From Octopus vulgaris (taxonomy: Eukaryota): 64,000 nt of DNA. The translations under genes were made by a program, and so were the position numbers. Shown here piece after piece: positions 5,780-60,456 of the stretch; the stretch's first letter is position 1, and every line of letters starts with the position of its first letter. The notes beneath the pieces are model-generated. The model did not search any database and was not told where the DNA came from. It saw nothing but the letters and a program-made list of their open reading frames with translations. The stretch covers positions 6,448,001 through 6,512,000 of the forward strand of contig OX597836.1 in the NCBI GenBank assembly GCA_951406725.2. The letters run 5' to 3'.

Positions 5780-6474
5780 AGACATGTTAGGCCGCTACAG
5801 CGATGAAGATGAAGCTATTTTGGAGAGAATAGTCACAGGTGATAGGATCTTGGTCCGTCACTTTGAGCCAGGATCCCAAAGGCGGAGTAAAACGGAAACA
5901 CGCGGAATTGCGAACGGAAAATAATTTATAGACTCAAACATCCGAAGTGATGGTAACCGTTTTGGGGGACACGAAATGGCCTACACAGGAACATTACTTG
6001 TAAAAAGGGACAACTGTCACCAATGTAGGCTACAGTGCAATACTGGTCAACAAACTGAAGCCAGCAAAAATCTATTTTTTTCAAAGGAAGTGCTGCTGTT
6101 GCACGACAATGCGTGCCCACATACACCCGCCCACACCATTGAAACCATTGAAGAATTGGGTTTCGAGTTGCTGGAATATCCTGCTTACAGTCCAGATTTC
6201 ACCGCTTCCGACTATCACCTCTTTGGACCGCTCAACATCCGCTACGATGTCGTCTGCTTGCTTCCGACGAAGAAGCACAAGAAGCGGATCATAAATGGCT
6301 GCGCAACCGGCCGAAAAACCATTTCCGATGGCATAAGCAGGGTTGTGGACCGCTGGTAGAAGTGCATTGTAAAACAAGGAGACTATGTCGAACAATGATA
6401 TCATTGTCCATCGCCTGATTTTGCTTTAATAAATTACAGAAACATGAGTGCATATAATGTTTGACTTAACCTCG
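5780..6474 (+). pseudogene. 5'-truncated mariner transposase relic with right TIR
   Basis: ILERIVTGD, LLHDNACPH and YSPDFTASDYHLFG motifs with frameshifts. Ends TTTGACTTAACCTCG-TA. Confidence 0.9.
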
Positions 6475-19932: not shown

Positions 19933-21216
19933 CCGAGTCATCCCATAAATACTCGGCTTTTTCAATTTCATAAACGAAAAATCGGAGGGGGACGGGATAA
20001 ACTACCTGCATCAATTGGCTATAAAAGCAGGTAGTAATTTTACCTTGTCCTTATTCTTAGTGCAAATTTCGAAGAGTGCAGTTCGATTTTAACATTTATT
20101 ATTTCAAAGCTATAATGGAAGCGGCAAAGGAGCATATTTGGCACATTTTGCTTCATGAGTTCAATAAAGGCAATTGAACAACGGAAAGTGCCAAGAATAT
20201 TAATAGAGTGTATGGGGATCGGACAATAAGTGTAAGCCAGTGTCAACAATGGTTCCAGAAATTCCAAGCCGAAAAGATCCGGGAGAATCTGTAGAGCTCG
20301 ACGAGGACATCCTGAAAACCCTGGTGGAACAAAATCCCATTGGAACTGTTGAGGAACTAGCAGAGAAGCTTGGATTTGGTCATTCAACCATTCATCGATA
20401 CCTGCATGCCATCGGAAAAGTCAGCATATTGGATCAATGGGTTCCTCGCAAACTTTCCGAATCTAATTGCATGCAGAGAGTGAGTGTGTGCTGTTCTTTG
20501 CTGTCGCGTCTCACGAATGGATCTTTTTTGGACCAAATAGTGACCGGTGACGAGAAATTGATTCTCTATATAAATGTCAAGCGCCGAAGACAGTGGATAG
20601 GGAAAGGAGAAACACCGGCACCCCAGGCTAAAGAATGTCTTCACCCACATAAGGTGTTGTTATCTGTTTGGTGGGACACGAAAGGTTGAGTCCACTTTGA
20701 ACGTTTAAACCCAAACCAAATGATAACAAAGGAGATCTACTGCAAGCAGCTTGAGCGGCTTAAGTCAGCGCTAGAAGAAAAACGCCCATCTTTGGTTCCA
20801 TGACGAAAGATATTCTTGCATCGGTTATATACAGCGAGAATGACATTCAAAAGGATGGAGCAGTTTGAATGAGAAACGATGCCCCACCTACCATATTCAC
20901 CGGATATTGCCCCATCTGACTATCATTTATTTCGCAGTCTTCGAAATCATTTGGACGGAAAAAATATGAATTCTGTAGAGGAGGTCAGAACAGTACTGGA
21001 GGAGTATTTTTCGTCAGGGACAAGTGAATTTTAGAAAAGGGGCCTTGTAAGTCTACCAGATAGAAATGGGGCCTTGCAAGTCTACCAGTTAGACGGAAGC
21101 GCATTGTAGAAAATGACAGAGAATATATTTTAGATTAAAAAAGAACTTTCTTTATCTTAATTTTGAAAAATATAACAAGTATAAATGACAACCGTATTAT
21201 TCATGAGATGACCCAA
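19933..21216 (+). mobile_element. Full-length mariner element with inactivated transposase (relic ORF 20115-21138)
   Basis: Imperfect TIRs CCGAGTCATCCCATAAATA / TATTCATGAGATGACCCAA-TA. Motifs MEAAKEHIWHILLHEF, WVPRKL, IVTGDEK, KVLLSVWWD and YSPDIAPSDYHLF. Several stops and frameshifts. Confidence 0.95.
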
Positions 21217-21928: not shown

Positions 21929-22509
21929 AGTAAACTAACTTTTTTTAACGGCGGTGCATCAGCATGGCCGCAGCTCTGAGCTGAAACTAAAAAAAAAAAA
22001 GCTATTTCGGTGTGGTGGTGATGGTAGTGGGGTGGGTGAGTGTTAGCTGATTACATCAATCCCTGTGTTCAACTGATACTTATTTTATCGATCTCGCAAA
22101 GATGAAAGGGAGAGTAGACGCAGCGGAATTTGAACTCAGAACGTAAAGACGGACGAAATGCCGCTAAGCTTTTCATCCGGCGTGATAGCGATTCTGTCAG
22201 CTCACTTAAAATCCTAACTTACAACTGGGAGGCATATTTTCCCTGCTATTATTCTTTTATTCATTTCAGTCATTTGACTGCGGCCATGCTGGATCACCGC
22301 CTTTAGTCGAGCAAATCGACCCCAGGACAAACACAAACACATATATATACGACGGGATTCTTTCAGTTTCCGTCTACCAAATCCACTCACTTGGTCGGCC
22401 CGAGGCTATATAGTAGAAGACACTTGCCCAAGGTGCCACGCAGTGGAACTGAACCCGGAACCATGTGGCTGGTAAACAACCTACTTACCACACATCCACT
22501 CCTGCGCCT

Positions 22510-22890
22510 CAATCTGTTTATCTGTTTTAATATTAAATCTAATTCATCTTTAGTATTCCTCCTTAAACTTTCATTTGCCTGTGTCGCTCTCCCTATAGTT
22601 TTATTGATTTCCAAGTATTTATCCATCTGTGTTTGGTCATCATAGTTACCAAACACTCTTATCACATTTACCAAACACTCTTGTCACAGTAAATTTATCT
22701 AACATGATATTAAGTTTCTTCTGTATACACTTTCCTTAACGTACATTTCTAACCTAAATCTTATATCAATTCCTCTTGTCAATCTATGTACGAAATGTTT
22801 CTAGTTGTTTGTCAACTGCAGAGTACAACTTGAGGTCATCCATTAACAAAATAAGCTTAATTGTCCTCCCATAACACCGTATCCAAGATC
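22510..22890 (-). mobile_element. R4/Dong-like reverse transcriptase relic
   Basis: LLMDDLKLYSAVDKQLE (YMDDLKLY-type motif) followed by DKYLEI; heavily degraded. Confidence 0.7.
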
Positions 22891-26310: not shown

Positions 26311-26600
26311 TTCGCAACCGCGGACATACATTCGCAACCGTGGGTCTGCATTCGCAACGGAAGGCCTGGGTTCGCGACAGTGGGCCTACGCTCGCAACGG
26401 CGGGGCTGCGTTCATAGCAGCGGGCCTGCACTCGCAACATCGGTCCTGCATTAGTAACAACGGTCCTGCGTTCGCATCCGCGGTCCTGCGTTCGCATCCG
26501 CGGTCCTGCGTTCGCATCCGCGGTCCTGTGTTCGCAACCGTTGGTCTGCGTTCTCATCTGCGCACCCGCATTCGCAACCGCCCGGCCTACATTCGCATCC
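26311..26600. repeat. GC-rich 20-bp minisatellite, ~15 units
   Basis: Consensus TTCGCA(A/T)CCGCGGTCCTGCG. Three near-identical central units, divergent flanks. Confidence 0.9.
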
Positions 26601-27777: not shown

Positions 27778-27950
27778 TTAGAAGATGTTGTCGAAGGAGA
27801 AGAATCTGTGCCACCAGGAGTGTCGCTTCCTGACGCTGATTCTGTCGACGATGTGGACCACACCGTCGGTTGCCATGTTGTCGCAGGATATGATGTGTCC
27901 TCCGCGGAAACGGAAGCCGCTACCTTCCAGGCTGGAGCAGCAGACGGAAG
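27778..27950 (-). CDS. TGFBI/periostin-like fasciclin, last coding exon (end of FAS1-4, stop)
   Basis: caacag acceptor, phase 1. (T)SVCCSSLEG...CDNMATDGVVHIVDR...SFDNIF* contains the H2 motif. Confidence 0.92.
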
Positions 27951-41103: not shown

Positions 41104-41198
41104 CTATGGGGCATCCATAATCGCCGATTTTCCTGGAGAAACCAGGACAGCATTCCATTATTTCCAGCTCCTCCATTTTCTCGGCATCTTCTACAATT
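41104..41198 (-). CDS. Fasciclin exon (EMI-like, C-terminal half)
   Basis: tctag|IVEDAEK...MECCPGFSRKIGDYGCPI|gtttgt. Confidence 0.93.
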
Positions 41199-41882: not shown

Positions 41883-42008
41883 ATGGTTTTGCAGCGGACG
41901 CTGAAGAACGACTGGTCGCATGACTTGCTGTAGCTGCCTTGGTGGACTTGCAGATCTGTATCTGTGATGTTGGTCACTTCAGTGGTCTTGTTCTTGCATA
42001 CGTTTGGC
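41883..42008 (-). CDS. Fasciclin exon (EMI-like, N-terminal half)
   Basis: tccag|(G)PNVCKNKTT...SCDQSFFSVRCKT|gtaagt, phase 2 to 2. Confidence 0.93.
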
Positions 42009-42141
42009 CTGGAATGTTAAACATATAAACAAGCATGTACACACCTATACGCATAACCACAAGAGCACGAGCGATCATAAACACACGCACGGTTGTGTGT
42101 GTGTATGTGTGTTTGCGTGTGCGTGAGTATATGTATTTGTG

Positions 42142-42433
42142 CTCTTTGGTTCGACTGTGGCTTTGAATATTTCAAGTTTGAAGTCTCTACTTAGATTTGA
42201 TGACCAGATCTTATGCATGTCATTACAGGCTGACCAGGCCATACCCTTTCTAGTTAGAAAGTCTTTTCCAGATGATGATATGTATGACCCAAGATATTTA
42301 TAATCAGAAACCATATTCCCAGGGATACAGACATCCAGCAACAGAACCTCCGTAATGCCATGATGGACCGTGAAGTCTGGCGTAGCATAGTAAATTCCAT
42401 TGTCTCGACCACGGTCGAACAATGATGATGATG
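42142..42433. mobile_element. 5'-inverted, truncated RTE-like LINE insertion with TSD
   Basis: The - segment encodes DYKYLGSYI...AWSACNDMHKIWSS...FKATVEP. The + segment encodes AMMDREVWRSIV* followed by a (TGA)n tail. Flanked by ATGTATTTGTG at 42131 and 42434. Confidence 0.85.
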
Positions 42434-42557
42434 ATGTATTTGTGTGTGTGTATGTGCGTGAGTGTGTGTATGTTCGTGTGTGTGTGTGTGTGTGCGTATG
42501 TGTATGTGCGTGCATATTTCGTGTGTGGGTGTGGTTATGACAGTGGAGGATACTTAC

Positions 42558-42605
42558 CCTTTCCACCAGACTCGGCCGTTGCCATTTCCAAAAGTCACCC
42601 GGAAG
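42558..42605 (-). CDS. Fasciclin 48-nt exon preceding the EMI-like domain
   Basis: Long pyrimidine tract, gtag|FRVTFGNGNGRVWWKG|gtaagt. Joins the next exon to form WWKGPNVC. Confidence 0.88.
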
Positions 42606-44940: not shown

Positions 44941-45100
44941 CTTGGGAAAAAACAACTTCGGTCGTCTTGTTGTAGTCGAGGGCTCTTCGATGACGCCCGA
45001 CACCTCTGGGAGGTGGCCCTCGAAGTCGCTGGAAACGGAGATCTCCAGGTCCAAATTCTTGGACGGCTGTTGTTGCTGCTGGTAGTGGTGGTGTTTAAGG
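44941..45100 (-). CDS. Probable N-terminal-region exon of the fasciclin gene
   Basis: GC3-biased frame LKHHHYQQQQQPSKNLDLEISVSSDFEGHLPEVSGVIEEPSTTTRRPKLFFPK. Both boundaries are uncertain. Confidence 0.55.
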
Positions 45101-47453: not shown

Positions 47454-48606
47454 TATTTCTTTATTGCCCACAAGGAGCTAAACATAGAGGGGGCAAACAA
47501 GGACAGACAAAGGGATTAAGTCGATTGCATCGCCTCCAGTGCGTAACCGGTACTTAATTTATCGACCCTGAAAGGATGAAAGACAAAGTCGACCTCGGCG
47601 GAATTTGAACTCAGAACGTAGCAGCAGACGAAATACCTATTCCTTTACTACCCACAAGGGGCTAAACACAGAGGGGACAAACAAGGACAGGCAAACGGAT
47701 TAAGTCGATTATATCGACCCCAGTGCGTAACCGGTACTTAATTTATCGACCCTGAAAGGATGAAAGACAAAGTCGACCTCGGCGGAATTTGAACTCAGAA
47801 CGTAGCGGCAGACGAAATACCTATTCCTTTACTACCCACAAGGGGCTAAACACAGAGGGGACAAACAAGGACAGGCAAACGGATTAAGTCGATTATATCG
47901 ACCCCAGTGCGTAACCGGTACTTAATTTATCGACCCTGAAAGGATGAAAGACAAAGTCGACCTCGGCTGAATTTGAACTCAGAACGTAGCAGCAGACGAA
48001 ATACCTATTCCTTTACTACCCACAAGGGGCTAAACACAGAGGGGACAAACAAGGACAGGCAAACGGATTAAGTCGATTATATCGACCCCAGTGCGTAACC
48101 GGTACTTAATTTATCGACCCTGAAAGGATAAAAGACAAAGTCGACCTCGGCGGAATTTGAACTCAGAACGTAGCGGCAGACGAAATACCTATTGCTTTAC
48201 TACCCACAAGGGGCTAAACACAGAGGGGACAAACAAGGACAGGCAAACGGATTAAGTCGATTATATCGACCCCAGTGCGTAACCGGTACTTAATTTATCG
48301 ACCCTGAAAGGATGAAGGACAAAGTCGACCTCAGCGGAATTTGAACTCAGAACGTAGCAGCAGACGAAATACCTATTCCTTTACTACCCACAAGGGGCTA
48401 AACACAGAGGGGACAAACAAGGACAGGCAAACGGATTAAGTCGATTATATCGACCCCAGTGCGTAACCGGTACTTAATTTATCGACACCCAAAGGATGAC
48501 AGGCAAAGTCGACCTCGGCGGAATTTGAACTCAGGACGTAACGACAGACGAAATACCAGCAAGCATTTCACTCAGCGTGCTACCGTTTCTGCCAGCTCGC
48601 CGCCTT
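47454..48606 (-). repeat. SINE family A head followed by six tandem 184-bp body units
   Basis: Unit phase positions ~47454, 47638, 47822, 48006, 48190 and 48374. A single head at ~48555-48606. Confidence 0.95.
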
Positions 48607-51492: not shown

Positions 51493-52136
51493 CATTGATG
51501 TATGCTTCCGTATGTTCAACAATAGATAGCCGCATAACCGCAATTGCCTTTAGTCGAGCAGATCGACCCCAGGACTTATTCCTTGTAAGCCTAGTACTTA
51601 TTCTATCGGTCTCTGTTGCCGAACCGCTAAGTTACAGGGACGTAAACACGCCAGCAGCAGTTGTCAAGCGATGTTGGGTGAGCAAACACAGACACACAAA
51701 CACATACACACACATACATATATATACATGTACATATATACGACGGGCTTCTTTCAGTTTCCGTCTACCAAATCCACTCACAAGGCTTTGGTCGTCTCGA
51801 GTAGAAGACACTTGCCTAAGGTGCCACGCAGTGGGACTGAACCCGGAACCATGTGGTTGGTAAGCAAGCTACTTACCACACAGCCACTCCTGTGCCTATG
51901 TATTACAGAACAGAGGGATTTTCTAAGTTTATTTCAAGTCAGTCTTTTTTGTATGTATGTATGTACGTATGTATGCATGTGTATACAAGCGTATATGTAT
52001 GTATGTATGTATGTATGCATGCATGCATGCATGTATATACATTTACAGACACATTTTTGATGTAAATTCATAGAATTAATTGGCGAAAAAAATTAAATAT
52101 ATATAATTATGTCAATATGTTTTGGAACCAAAATAC

Positions 52137-53483
52137 CTGACACTTCTTGGAATCCTCCTCCGACCACCATTCCTGTCATCAGTTCGACGACCATTCTCGT
52201 CATATGTTGGACGACCATTCGCGTCATCAGTTCGACGACCATTGTCGTCATCAGTTCGACGACCATTATCGTCATCAGTTCGACGACCATTCTCGTCATA
52301 TATTGGACGATCATTATCGTCATCAGTTCGACGACCATACTCGTCATCAGTTCGACGACCATTCGCGTCATCAGTTCGACGACCATTATCGTCATCAGTT
52401 CGACGACCATTCTCGTCATCAGTTCGACGACCATTATCGTCATCAGTTCGACGACCATACTCGTAATATTCGGTTGTACGATCAATCACGTCATATGTTG
52501 GTGGCTGGGATTCACCTTCGTCAATGAATGTCGTAATTTCTCTATCGTAGGGTGGTGGTGGGATGACGGTCCATTCGTAGTCCTGTGTGCAGTGGTAGCC
52601 TAATTCCATTCCTTTCACGCCACAATGTGGATCATAACTGCGCCAATCGTCAGAGTAGTCGCGATGGTAGCTAGGGTATCTGTTTCGTCGGTTGCTCCGG
52701 CGATAGCATCTGCCACCTCCATCATGATAATCGCCATGGCAACCTCCATTGTGGTGACCGCCATGATGTTCTTCACCATCGTAACCTCGTTCATTGTCGT
52801 CCTCCCCATGATGGTGACCTCCATGAGGACCTCCTCCATGGTGACCTTCTCCATGGTGACCTCCACGATGACCTCCTTCATGGTGACCTTCTCCATGATG
52901 ACCTCCATGATGACCTCCATGGTGACCTCTTTCATGGCTACCCTCCCCATGATGGTTTCCCCTATGACCTCCTCCATAGGGCCGCTCCTCACTGTGGTGA
53001 CCCCCATGATGTCTCCCTCCATGTTGACCTCGTCCATGATGCATTCCACCACGGTGGCCACCTCCATGATGGCGACCGCCGTGATGGCCACCTCGACCGT
53101 GCCCCTCTCCATGACGGTCATCGTAAGTATCTTCCACATAAACGTCAGTTGGACGATCATAATCTTCACGCTCGCCTTCATACTGATCTTCATAGCGACT
53201 TCGTCTAGGACCATAGTCATGTCGACGTCTATCTTGATATCTATAGCGATCACGTCGAAAACCGTTATTATCATCACGTCGTTGGCTTAAAGGCCGCCGA
53301 AGAAACCGTCGCCAGCGTCGCTGACCGGAATTTCGATTCTGTTGGCCAGAATCTTGTCCATCGTCTTGACCTATGTTTTGCTGGTTCAAATGCTGACCTC
53401 TGATGCGGTCATAAAGCCTTGCAGAACGTTGAAGGCTTGGATTATCGTAGATTTCTGCAGGATCATTTTTCGATTTGTTAAAG
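52137..53483 (-). CDS. Large low-complexity exon (Arg/Asp/Tyr-rich, His/Gly-rich, GRRTDDxN repeats), probably part of the fasciclin gene
   Basis: 1347 nt stop-free and not microsatellite. Donor CAG|gtattt (phase 2). Acceptor at 53483 (phase 2) or 53454 (phase 1). Confidence 0.8.
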
Positions 53484-55131
53484 CTATTTTAACCAATCAA
53501 AAATAGAGAGAAAGAGAAAATTACGAGTCATGACAATTAACGACACGAATAGACATACATCGTCAGCAAATGCTGATGACTCTGATGAAGGAGCGTCTGG
53601 ATGGTCATTCAATATGCTAGAAATAACAGCCAAATCTCCATCAAACCCTACGCACACATAGAGGCTACCCCCACAAATTTAGTCGGCAAAATTCACTCAC
53701 AAGGCCCGGGGCTATCGTAGAAGACATTTGCCCAAGGTGCCACGCAGTGGGACTGAACTCAAAACTACGTAGTCACAAAACGAGCTTCTTAACGAAACAG
53801 CCGTGTCCGTATGTTTGCATTTGCAACCGACAGGGGGCTTCTTTGGTAACATTTAGTAAGGGAAGAAAGGGCAGAATCTATAACCGTTTATTAATTTCTT
53901 TTTTTTTTTTTTTTGTGGGGTGGGGAGGGCATTATTAGAGGAAGTTAAGCTTATGCTGATTCTTGTCCTGAATTTTAGAAACGAGTTGAAGTTTGCAGAG
54001 GGTTCCAAATGCTTGCAATGGAATATTTGCAAAGGGGTGTATTCCGATAAACTAGTCAATTTTATTGCAACCGAAAGGCGGCGAGCTGGCAGAAACGTTA
54101 GCACGCTGGGCAAAATGCGTAGCTGTATTTCGTCTGTCGTTACGTTCTGAGTTCAAATTCCGCCAAGGTCGACTTTGCCTTTCATCCTTTCGGGGTCGAT
54201 AAATTAAGTACCAGTTACGCACTGGGGTCGATGTAATCGACTTCATCCGTTTGTCTGTCCTTGTTTGTCCCCTCGGTGTTTAGCCCCTTGTGGGCAATAA
54301 AGAAATTAGAAACGATAGCACGCCGGGCAAAAATGCTTAGCGGTAGTTTGTCTGTCTTTACGTTCTTAGTTCAAATTTCGCCGAAGTCAACTTTGCCTTT
54401 CGGGGTCAATAAATTAAGTACCTGTTACACACTGGGGTATATCTAATCGACTGGCCTCCCCTCCCACAAAATTTCGGGCTTGTGCCTAGAGTAGAAAATA
54501 TTATTAGTTATACTTCCAATATGTATTTCAGAGGTGGAGGTCATACAATATTTTTATTGTTTTAAGGCGACGAGCTGTCAGAAACGTTAGCACGCTGAGC
54601 GAAATGCGTAGCCGTATTTCGTCTGCCGTTACGTTCTGAGTTCAAATTCTGCCGAGATCGACTTTGCCTTTCCTCCTTTCGGGTCGATAAATTAAGTACC
54701 AGTCACGCATATACAGTAATATACATATACAGTAATGTGTTAGAGATGGGAAGGACACATTTAAGAATTGACTAAATAACCACAGGTCCTCTTTTGGGAT
54801 CCAAAAGTGGTTCATTACTCTTTGGCTAACTACATATGTTGTTCAAAAGAGGAGGGACCACCATACACAATTGAAAGATTGAGTGGGAGATAACTCCATC
54901 TCGATAAGAAGGGGTTTTCTATTCGAAGTATTTCCTTTAAAAGCTGAATAAGCAGAGCAAGGGTACACACGGAGACAGAAAGTGTCGGCGAGGGGATCTC
55001 AGATGTGTGACGAAAGATTCCCGGACAATGGACAAGAGTTGGAATAAGAACAGAAATAAACGAGTGAAGAACGAATATACAGTGCGTGTGTTTATTTGGC
55101 AAAAACAAAATGACCGTCCCGAAATACAATA

Positions 55132-59941: not shown

Positions 59942-60211
59942 TCATGTAAACGTTCGTATGCTGTTTATACAGTCTTATACACACAGGCACGCGCACACAC
60001 ACACATATATAAGTATATATATATATATTTATATAAATTGACACACACATACGTGTATATTTATATATATATATATATATATATATTAATTAATAAGGGT
60101 GAGAGAATTAGATACTAATTTAATAGTATCCCGATTCAACACCAAGTGGCCCAGTGCACATAGAAACCTGGATTATTATAATATTTTATAATATATTATA
60201 ATATTTTATAC

Positions 60212-60456
<245 letters not shown>

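Follow-up and report, generated by a model that had tools for sequence, protein, structure and literature searches.

A histidine-rich cassette exon with a candidate cleavage site at its end in a fasciclin gene of Octopus vulgaris

A gene of the TGFBI/periostin/midline fasciclin family in Octopus vulgaris carries a His-rich exon of 449 codons that is an optional cassette exon: the gene makes the ordinary short protein as well. The exon lies on the minus strand of a 64,000-nt stretch of contig OX597836.1 (assembly GCA_951406725.2, forward-strand positions 6,448,001 to 6,512,000; here called the window, position 1 being its first letter). Taken alone, the gene structure, a cassette exon in a fasciclin gene, is in our judgement close to certain. 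On top of this we suggest that the long form acts as a pro-protein, likely cut at basic residues where the insert ends, and that the His-rich polypeptide would be secreted together with an ordinary scaffold and serve a metal- or pH-sensitive role in the matrix; we give this chain as a whole a probability of roughly 0.45.

Extent and coding content of the exon

The exon covers positions 52137 to 53483 (minus strand, 1,347 nt, phase 2-2) within an open frame of 458 codons (53488-52112); the rough probability of 449 open codons arising by chance is 2e-11. Contig cover ends at both exon edges, at AG and GT. A sequence-only reading of the same DNA had placed a His/Gly-rich block at 52580-53120, described as ~130 residues of GHHGG/GHHGE pentapeptides followed by two Cys pairs, on the same strand as the fasciclin exons and phase-compatible with them. 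Strand, phase and both Cys pairs are as it had them, and its block does fall within the exon. The exon is far larger, however, and the start given for the block cuts through a conserved motif; that motif, a 124-residue front part, about twelve repeats, the RRRIPR|SV end and the alternative splicing had all been overlooked.

In coding order, the exon runs from an Arg/Asp/Tyr-rich front through a Gly/His block, a linker with the Cys pairs and a series of repeats to RRRIPRSV. By composition, the front part (53111-53483, 124 aa) contains 21% Arg and 15% Asp and is rich in Gln and Tyr, while the Gly/His block (52742-53110) has 123 residues, including 49 Gly, 38 His, 12 Glu and 10 Arg. The block is thus real, but exact GHHGG/GHHGE pentapeptides occur in only six copies, covering 28 of its 123 residues, and the looser pattern xHH[GS]x covers 62. 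Its computed charge goes from +24.6 at pH 5.5 to -5.5 at pH 8.1. The Tyr/Pro-rich linker that follows holds both Cys pairs: the first (52741-52706) is present in O. bimaculoides and missing from the more distant orthologues described below, which of the second pair (52624-52589) retain only the second Cys, in GxHC. This residue belongs to the conserved motif GxHC-x8-IPPPPYDR (52600-52541). A repeat scan finds a 24-nt tandem array (52161-52464, 12.7 copies, 87%) that encodes about twelve 8-residue repeats of the RRTDDDNG type; this polyampholyte is not found in O. bimaculoides and is a recent expansion beside the basic site. The exon then ends in RRRIPR|SV (52145-52162), a candidate proprotein-convertase site of the minimal RXXR form.

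Over the whole exon, Gly makes up 17.4%, His 10.3% and Ala 0.9% of the residues, with 6.9% hydrophobic, and there are ten RXXR sites. A Pfam search of the exon gave no match, and a search of the ESM Atlas no usable match. AlphaFold returned a mean pLDDT of 39.8 and no helices, from an alignment of only two sequences, a result that says little beyond fitting disorder. We regard the exon as encoding a predicted disordered pro-segment rich in His, Arg and Asp.

The exon is joined in frame to the fasciclin gene

The exon is present in 20 of the 24 public runs listed, from eight studies. Contigs of four runs (X1, X7, X10 and X17, one per study), whose RNA status is a guess as none is recorded as RNA, were placed on 52045-53620. 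At 52137, contigs of X1, X7 and X10 (three of the four runs, three studies) carry a 26-letter loose end whose only match in the window, an exact one, is at 42580-42605, and this gives a GT-AG intron of 9,531 nt between the cassette exon and 42605; among the contig pieces listed for X17, none covers 52137. At 53485, a 25-letter loose end in X7, X10 and X17 (again three of the four) has no match within the window and encodes FNSSKFPI, with which exon 1 of the annotated O. vulgaris protein P0005 (CAI9739244.1) ends; this putative signal-peptide exon lies outside the window. The O. bimaculoides protein XP_014784788.1 (P0002) independently joins signal exon, orthologous exon and EMI exon. The octopus contigs break in the 24-nt array and none covers the exon from end to end, so that its continuity is supported by tiling and by P0128, the long form of a distant orthologue.

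The proposed fusion of the block to an EMI-FAS1 gene is therefore borne out: splicing keeps the frame from the exon into the EMI and four FAS1 domains, and public-run contigs show the join of 52137 to the fasciclin exons. The transcript does not end before 45100, as the sequence-only reading had allowed it might, since the next exon is at 42605 and not near 45100. A separate gene for the His/Gly block is ruled out by the same junction. We also considered an upstream microexon of 27 nt, which is ruled out because the loose end at 53485 is the end of exon 1, outside the window. The main contig of run X1 continues unspliced for 124 nt into the upstream intron (53484-53607, minus strand) without a loose end; this may be a retained intron or an internal start, and the product would be without a signal peptide.

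The scaffold downstream is described by a 14-exon minus-strand model that runs from 42605 to a stop at 27780 and gives 657 residues equal to the tail of P0005. Its first exon (42558-42605, 48 nt, FRVTFG...WWKG) is joined either to the cassette exon or directly to exon 1, as in the skip form. Two exons of the gene model (41883-42008 and 41104-41198) encode the EMI/CROPT domain, and eleven further exons between 27778 and 40029 encode the four FAS1 domains (PF02469) and the stop, again in agreement with the tail of P0005; they lie at 40029-39842, 38796-38599, 37037-36887, 35452-35312, 34746-34534, 33446-33310, 32769-32596, 31426-31328, 30480-30331, 29834-29756 and 27950-27778. In P0005, PF02469 matches four tandem stretches (E 1.6e-80), and the EMI domain ahead of the first is matched by PF07546 with E 0.0024 and 19 bits, under the 25-bit cut-off. 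The EMI region nevertheless has six Cys in the pattern of the other orthologues, five of them invariant or nearly so across 57 sequences. Residues 9-19 of P0005 have a mean hydropathy of 3.1, and the closest solved relative is human TGFBI (5nv6, E 4.9e-74).

Members of the TGFBI/periostin/midline fasciclin family are described as having an EMI or CROPT domain followed by four FAS1 domains (PMC9555118, PMC8220419), and as binding collagen, fibronectin or integrins (PMC9555118). With its six-Cys EMI region ahead of the first FAS1 domain, and four FAS1 domains, the octopus scaffold is a member of this family, and its N-terminus is predicted to be of the signal type. The fourth FAS1 domain (27950-27778, minus strand) appears shortened in cephalopods compared with the 57-sequence consensus, most of all in Octopus.

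The window holds several further elements. Transposase remnants lie on the plus strand at 20207-20686 and 5925-6356 (matched by PF01359 at E 1.9e-11 and, weakly, by DDE_3), and 867-1343 is similar to them by eye, with no Pfam match. Intron 1 contains a MITE-like hairpin (60207-60343), a 53-nt inverted repeat that is 96% complementary around a 31-nt spacer. In the intron after the cassette exon, a 184-nt unit belonging to a repeat that is scattered across the window stands six times in tandem (47454-48557, 96%), and a 20-nt tandem array of 13.4 copies lies downstream of the gene (26311-26578). Two minus-strand frames, 42078-42605 and 22390-22683, resemble by eye what we take to be LINE reverse-transcriptase remnants; Pfam gave no match for either.

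Inclusion and skipping of the exon

Logan contigs are built on 31-mers (PMC12424806). A graph simulation at k=31, in which the unknown upstream letters were set at random, reproduces seven contig pieces observed inside the exon, while simulations at k=25 and k=35 do not. Of six models, only inclusion together with direct splicing of exon 1 to 42605 predicts the observed loose ends of 25 and 26 letters, although other junctions with the same three and four shared letters would give equal lengths. Inclusion alone predicts no break, and intron retention is rejected as the cause of the breaks, as it would give 28 letters at each end. An exon near 45.1 kb is likewise rejected: it is unused in the observed join and has no Pfam match, and the model that contains it predicts 29 letters rather than 26.

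The skip form is also found as protein models. P0004 (700 aa) and P0006 (705 aa) are each encoded on a single public-run contig, and P0005 is an annotated model; P0004 opens with the same 44 residues as P0002. The short form thus has 700 residues and the long form would have 1,149, and the cassette exon is missing from the public 700-aa O. vulgaris model. The exon has the symmetric phase, the canonical splice sites and the two isoforms of a cassette exon. Alternative splicing as such is shared with the family: periostin is alternatively spliced (PMC9555118), and midline fasciclin is named among alternatively spliced fly genes (PMC12765595). The variable exons of periostin are C-terminal according to PMC9555118, whereas the octopus cassette is N-terminal of the EMI domain, and a His-rich cassette of 180-449 aa with a basic end in cephalopods sets the gene apart within the TGFBI family.

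Conservation of the insert

Compared with P0002 of O. bimaculoides, the exon is 67% identical, with 91 of 123 positions identical in the Gly/His block and 74 of 124 in the front part; set against a scaffold identity of 668/700, this means that the front part and the repeats change faster. Run X17 differs from the window at 11 bases, which lead to 7 amino-acid changes.

Two more distant orthologues, P0007 and P0008, share 48-50% identity with P0005 and 81% with each other. In a quick tree of 25 sequences, taken from the 120 listed matches and cluster members, they group with Octopus (SH-aLRT 100), and they are likely decapodiforms. Both have a long and a short form: P0128 equals P0008 with 180 aa added at the same insertion point, and P0127, incomplete at its 5' end, is the long form of P0007, with which it has the last 673 aa in common. 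The sequence-only reading had proposed a lineage-specific chimera; the insert is not limited to Octopus, as a homologous one occurs in two distant orthologues of the cephalopod clade. Should P0007 and P0008 be decapodiforms, the date given in PMC9068888 would put the age of the cassette at about 275 million years.

The inserts of P0127 and P0128 are rich in His (18-20%) and Arg, with runs of Arg at the end and 7-9% Gly, and the best 50-residue stretch contains 19-23 His in each of the four inserts. All four also carry GxHC-x8-IPPPPYDR, a 20-residue motif with 11 fixed positions; in the comparison of the distant inserts with octopus it has local scores of 113 and 130, each reached by none of 2000 shuffles, and its core occurs in no other protein among those compared. 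What is kept across the cephalopod inserts is thus the position, the richness in His and Arg, this one motif and the basic end, while the Gly richness, the GHHGG pattern, three of the four Cys and the RRTDDDNG array are not kept in the distant ones. The insert of P0128 is still cationic at pH 8.1 (+12); with this and the 7-9% Gly of the distant inserts, the charge switch is not uniform across inserts.

Among the 120 homologues listed, which are cluster representatives only, none has 12 or more His per 50 residues; the absence of the insert beyond cephalopods is not established by this, because the representatives hid P0127 and P0128, which were found as cluster members only. Both were also missed when long fused proteins containing the exon were sought among 1,272 candidates (none found) and by phmmer against 50% representatives (two matches, P0002 and the unrelated-looking repeat protein P0003), so these blank searches say little about the range of the insert.

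In nine gastropod and bivalve orthologues (among P0009-P0056), segments of 58-99 aa with 13-26% Arg precede the EMI domain, and that of P0013 also contains 13% His; the cephalopod skip forms are without this molluscan Arg-rich segment. The cassette may be an elaboration of the segment rather than an imported domain. The sequence-only reading had taken family members to have only a short N-terminus, which is loose for invertebrates: in 71 of the 120 homologues listed, the median is 101 residues before the EMI start. One could argue from the gastropod and bivalve segments, and from the fast turnover of repeats and Gly content, that the exon grew out of the molluscan Arg-rich linker in a largely neutral way, with nothing but its reading frame mattering. 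We consider this very improbable, as the motif with its 11 fixed positions and the high His density persist over 50% scaffold divergence.

The basic end and a proposed splice-and-cleave mechanism

Furin-type convertases recognize the consensus R-X-[KR]-R, with RXXR as the minimal form. The inserts end in RRRIPR|SV in O. vulgaris, RRRLPR|SV in O. bimaculoides, and RRRRRRRR..KKRS and RQRRRRRR..KRS in the distant pair, and all of these ends stand just ahead of WW..GPNVC, the short stretch that leads into the EMI domain. P0127 and P0128 have the canonical RX[KR]R at the insert end; neither octopus exon end contains it, both having the minimal RXXR.

Based on this, we propose that alternative splicing switches a predicted secreted EMI and four-FAS1 protein between forms of 700 and 1,149 aa, with exon 1 probably providing the signal peptide in both. 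In the secretory route, a furin-type convertase would cleave the long form behind RRRIPR (residue 490), and the mature scaffold would then start with SVSFRVTF, nearly the same as the short form. The freed piece of ~460 aa is expected to be disordered and cationic in acidic vesicles and to lose its His charge at seawater pH; it would bind Zn or Cu, or condense in an extracellular layer. The conserved Cys and the IPPPPYDR motif would act as an attachment or oligomerization handle, so that after cleavage the His-rich polypeptide may be either free or disulfide-held to the scaffold. The choice of splice form would set the amount of His-rich material per tissue alongside the scaffold.

Alternatively, the long form may stay uncleaved, as one isoform in which an intact His-rich arm forms cross-links between the FAS1 scaffold and metals, chitin or catechols. 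The chimera originally proposed from the sequence is correct as to the in-frame join; the exon is optional, though, and the short protein is also made. In favor of an intact arm, a full-length inclusion ORF exists (P0128), and the octopus site is without a basic P2 residue. On the other hand, Arg clusters end all four inserts just ahead of the scaffold, in canonical form in P0127 and P0128, and RRR.PR|SV is retained in both octopuses though the adjoining repeat is not. Because the basic residues at the insert end suggest cleavage, the permanent chimera is our second choice, possible but on the unlikely side.

The insert might also be discarded after cleavage, having served as a trafficking or latency pro-domain by low-pH Zn condensation, granule routing or masking of the EMI domain. 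Its place between signal peptide and EMI domain, its basic end and the computed charge change would all suit such a role, but the short form without the insert carries its own predicted signal peptide, and masking needs no such range of lengths (180 to 449 aa); we hold this to be quite improbable.

Gly/His-rich antifungal peptides such as the shepherins and holotricin-3 exist, and a related idea is that the insert gives rise, by additional cuts at its many Arg pairs, to Gly/His/Arg-rich peptides of skin mucus or egg coats that are antimicrobial or withhold metals. The ten RXXR sites of the exon would allow this, and a TGFBI ig-h3-like isoform is reported from O. vulgaris skin mucus as the parent of predicted antimicrobial peptides (PMC11431876), which gene and isoform not being identifiable from that report. 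The internal sites are poorly conserved, however, with RWRR in O. vulgaris only, and the best-conserved part is the Cys/Tyr/Pro motif rather than the cationic stretches, which makes such a precursor rather improbable.

Comparison with other His-rich proteins

We thus prefer the reading in which a His-rich polypeptide is cut off and co-secreted, and metal binding or condensation in the matrix appears to be its likeliest job, because of the charge shift of the block and a composition like that of a Zn-binding Nereis jaw protein. This protein, NVJP-1, is given as 27 mol% His and 36 mol% Gly (PMC9999432), and NVJP-1-type proteins show Zn-induced assembly. With 31% His, 40% Gly and GGH-type repeats with acidic residues, the 123-aa block resembles NVJP-1 and Glycera MTP, the whole-protein composition of NVJP-1 being matched in this block only (10% His and 17% Gly in the exon, 18-20% and 7-9% in the distant inserts). 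Unlike these proteins, the block has only two Tyr, and the likeness in composition is lost in the distant orthologues.

A likeness to squid beak proteins had also been drawn from the sequence. The squid HBPs (DgHBP-1 to -3) are described as Gly/His-rich, disordered and predicted to be pH-sensitive, with GHGX[YH] and GFA/GAGFA motifs (PMC11931252), and the octopus insert is itself Gly/His-rich and predicted to be disordered and pH-sensitive. Neither octopus exon contains a GHGX[YH] or GFA/GAGFA pentapeptide, however, and the Gly richness is not conserved in the distant inserts. HBPs are hydrophobic and Ala-rich, with Gly, Ala and His together above 50%, none of which holds for the exon (Gly 17.4%, His 10.3%, Ala 0.9%, hydrophobic residues 6.9%); they are known for expression in the buccal mass and for pH-triggered coacervation, and are encoded by free-standing genes, whereas the octopus insert is an exon of a fasciclin gene. 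By these sequence comparisons, the insert is not a squid HBP. According to PMC9068888, O. bimaculoides yielded no HBP genes.

We can speculate that a splice switch common to octopuses and squids makes a two-part kit in one-to-one ratio, pairing the fasciclin scaffold with a new His-rich protein for hardening or gluing that is held through the Cys and IPPPPYDR, and that the octopus Gly/His version would be a stand-in for the squid beak proteins, stiffening beak, radula or sucker cuticle; such a kit is an improbable extension of our reading.

P0002, annotated as 'filaggrin-like', shares the orthologous exon, signal exon and EMI exon with the gene described here, but is a truncated automatic model without the FAS1 domains, the 48-nt exon and the RRTDDDNG repeats, and its name is uninformative.

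Significance

In the open-access literature on cephalopod fasciclin, periostin or TGFBI, histidine-rich and filaggrin-like proteins, we found no description of a His-rich fasciclin exon. His-rich proteins are central to the hardening of squid beak and worm jaw, and the only beak proteins explored so far are those of the Humboldt squid, according to a 2025 review (PMC11931252). The exon is a conserved His-rich candidate that annotation has hidden: the O. vulgaris model omits it, and the O. bimaculoides one bears the name 'filaggrin-like'. It is a genuine and conserved splice variant within a known family, with a predicted function, and its inclusion by tissue would be a simple read-out pointing to that function. 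If our reading is true, cephalopods would vary a periostin-family scaffold at its N-terminus, by splicing and cleavage, where vertebrates vary it by C-terminal splicing.
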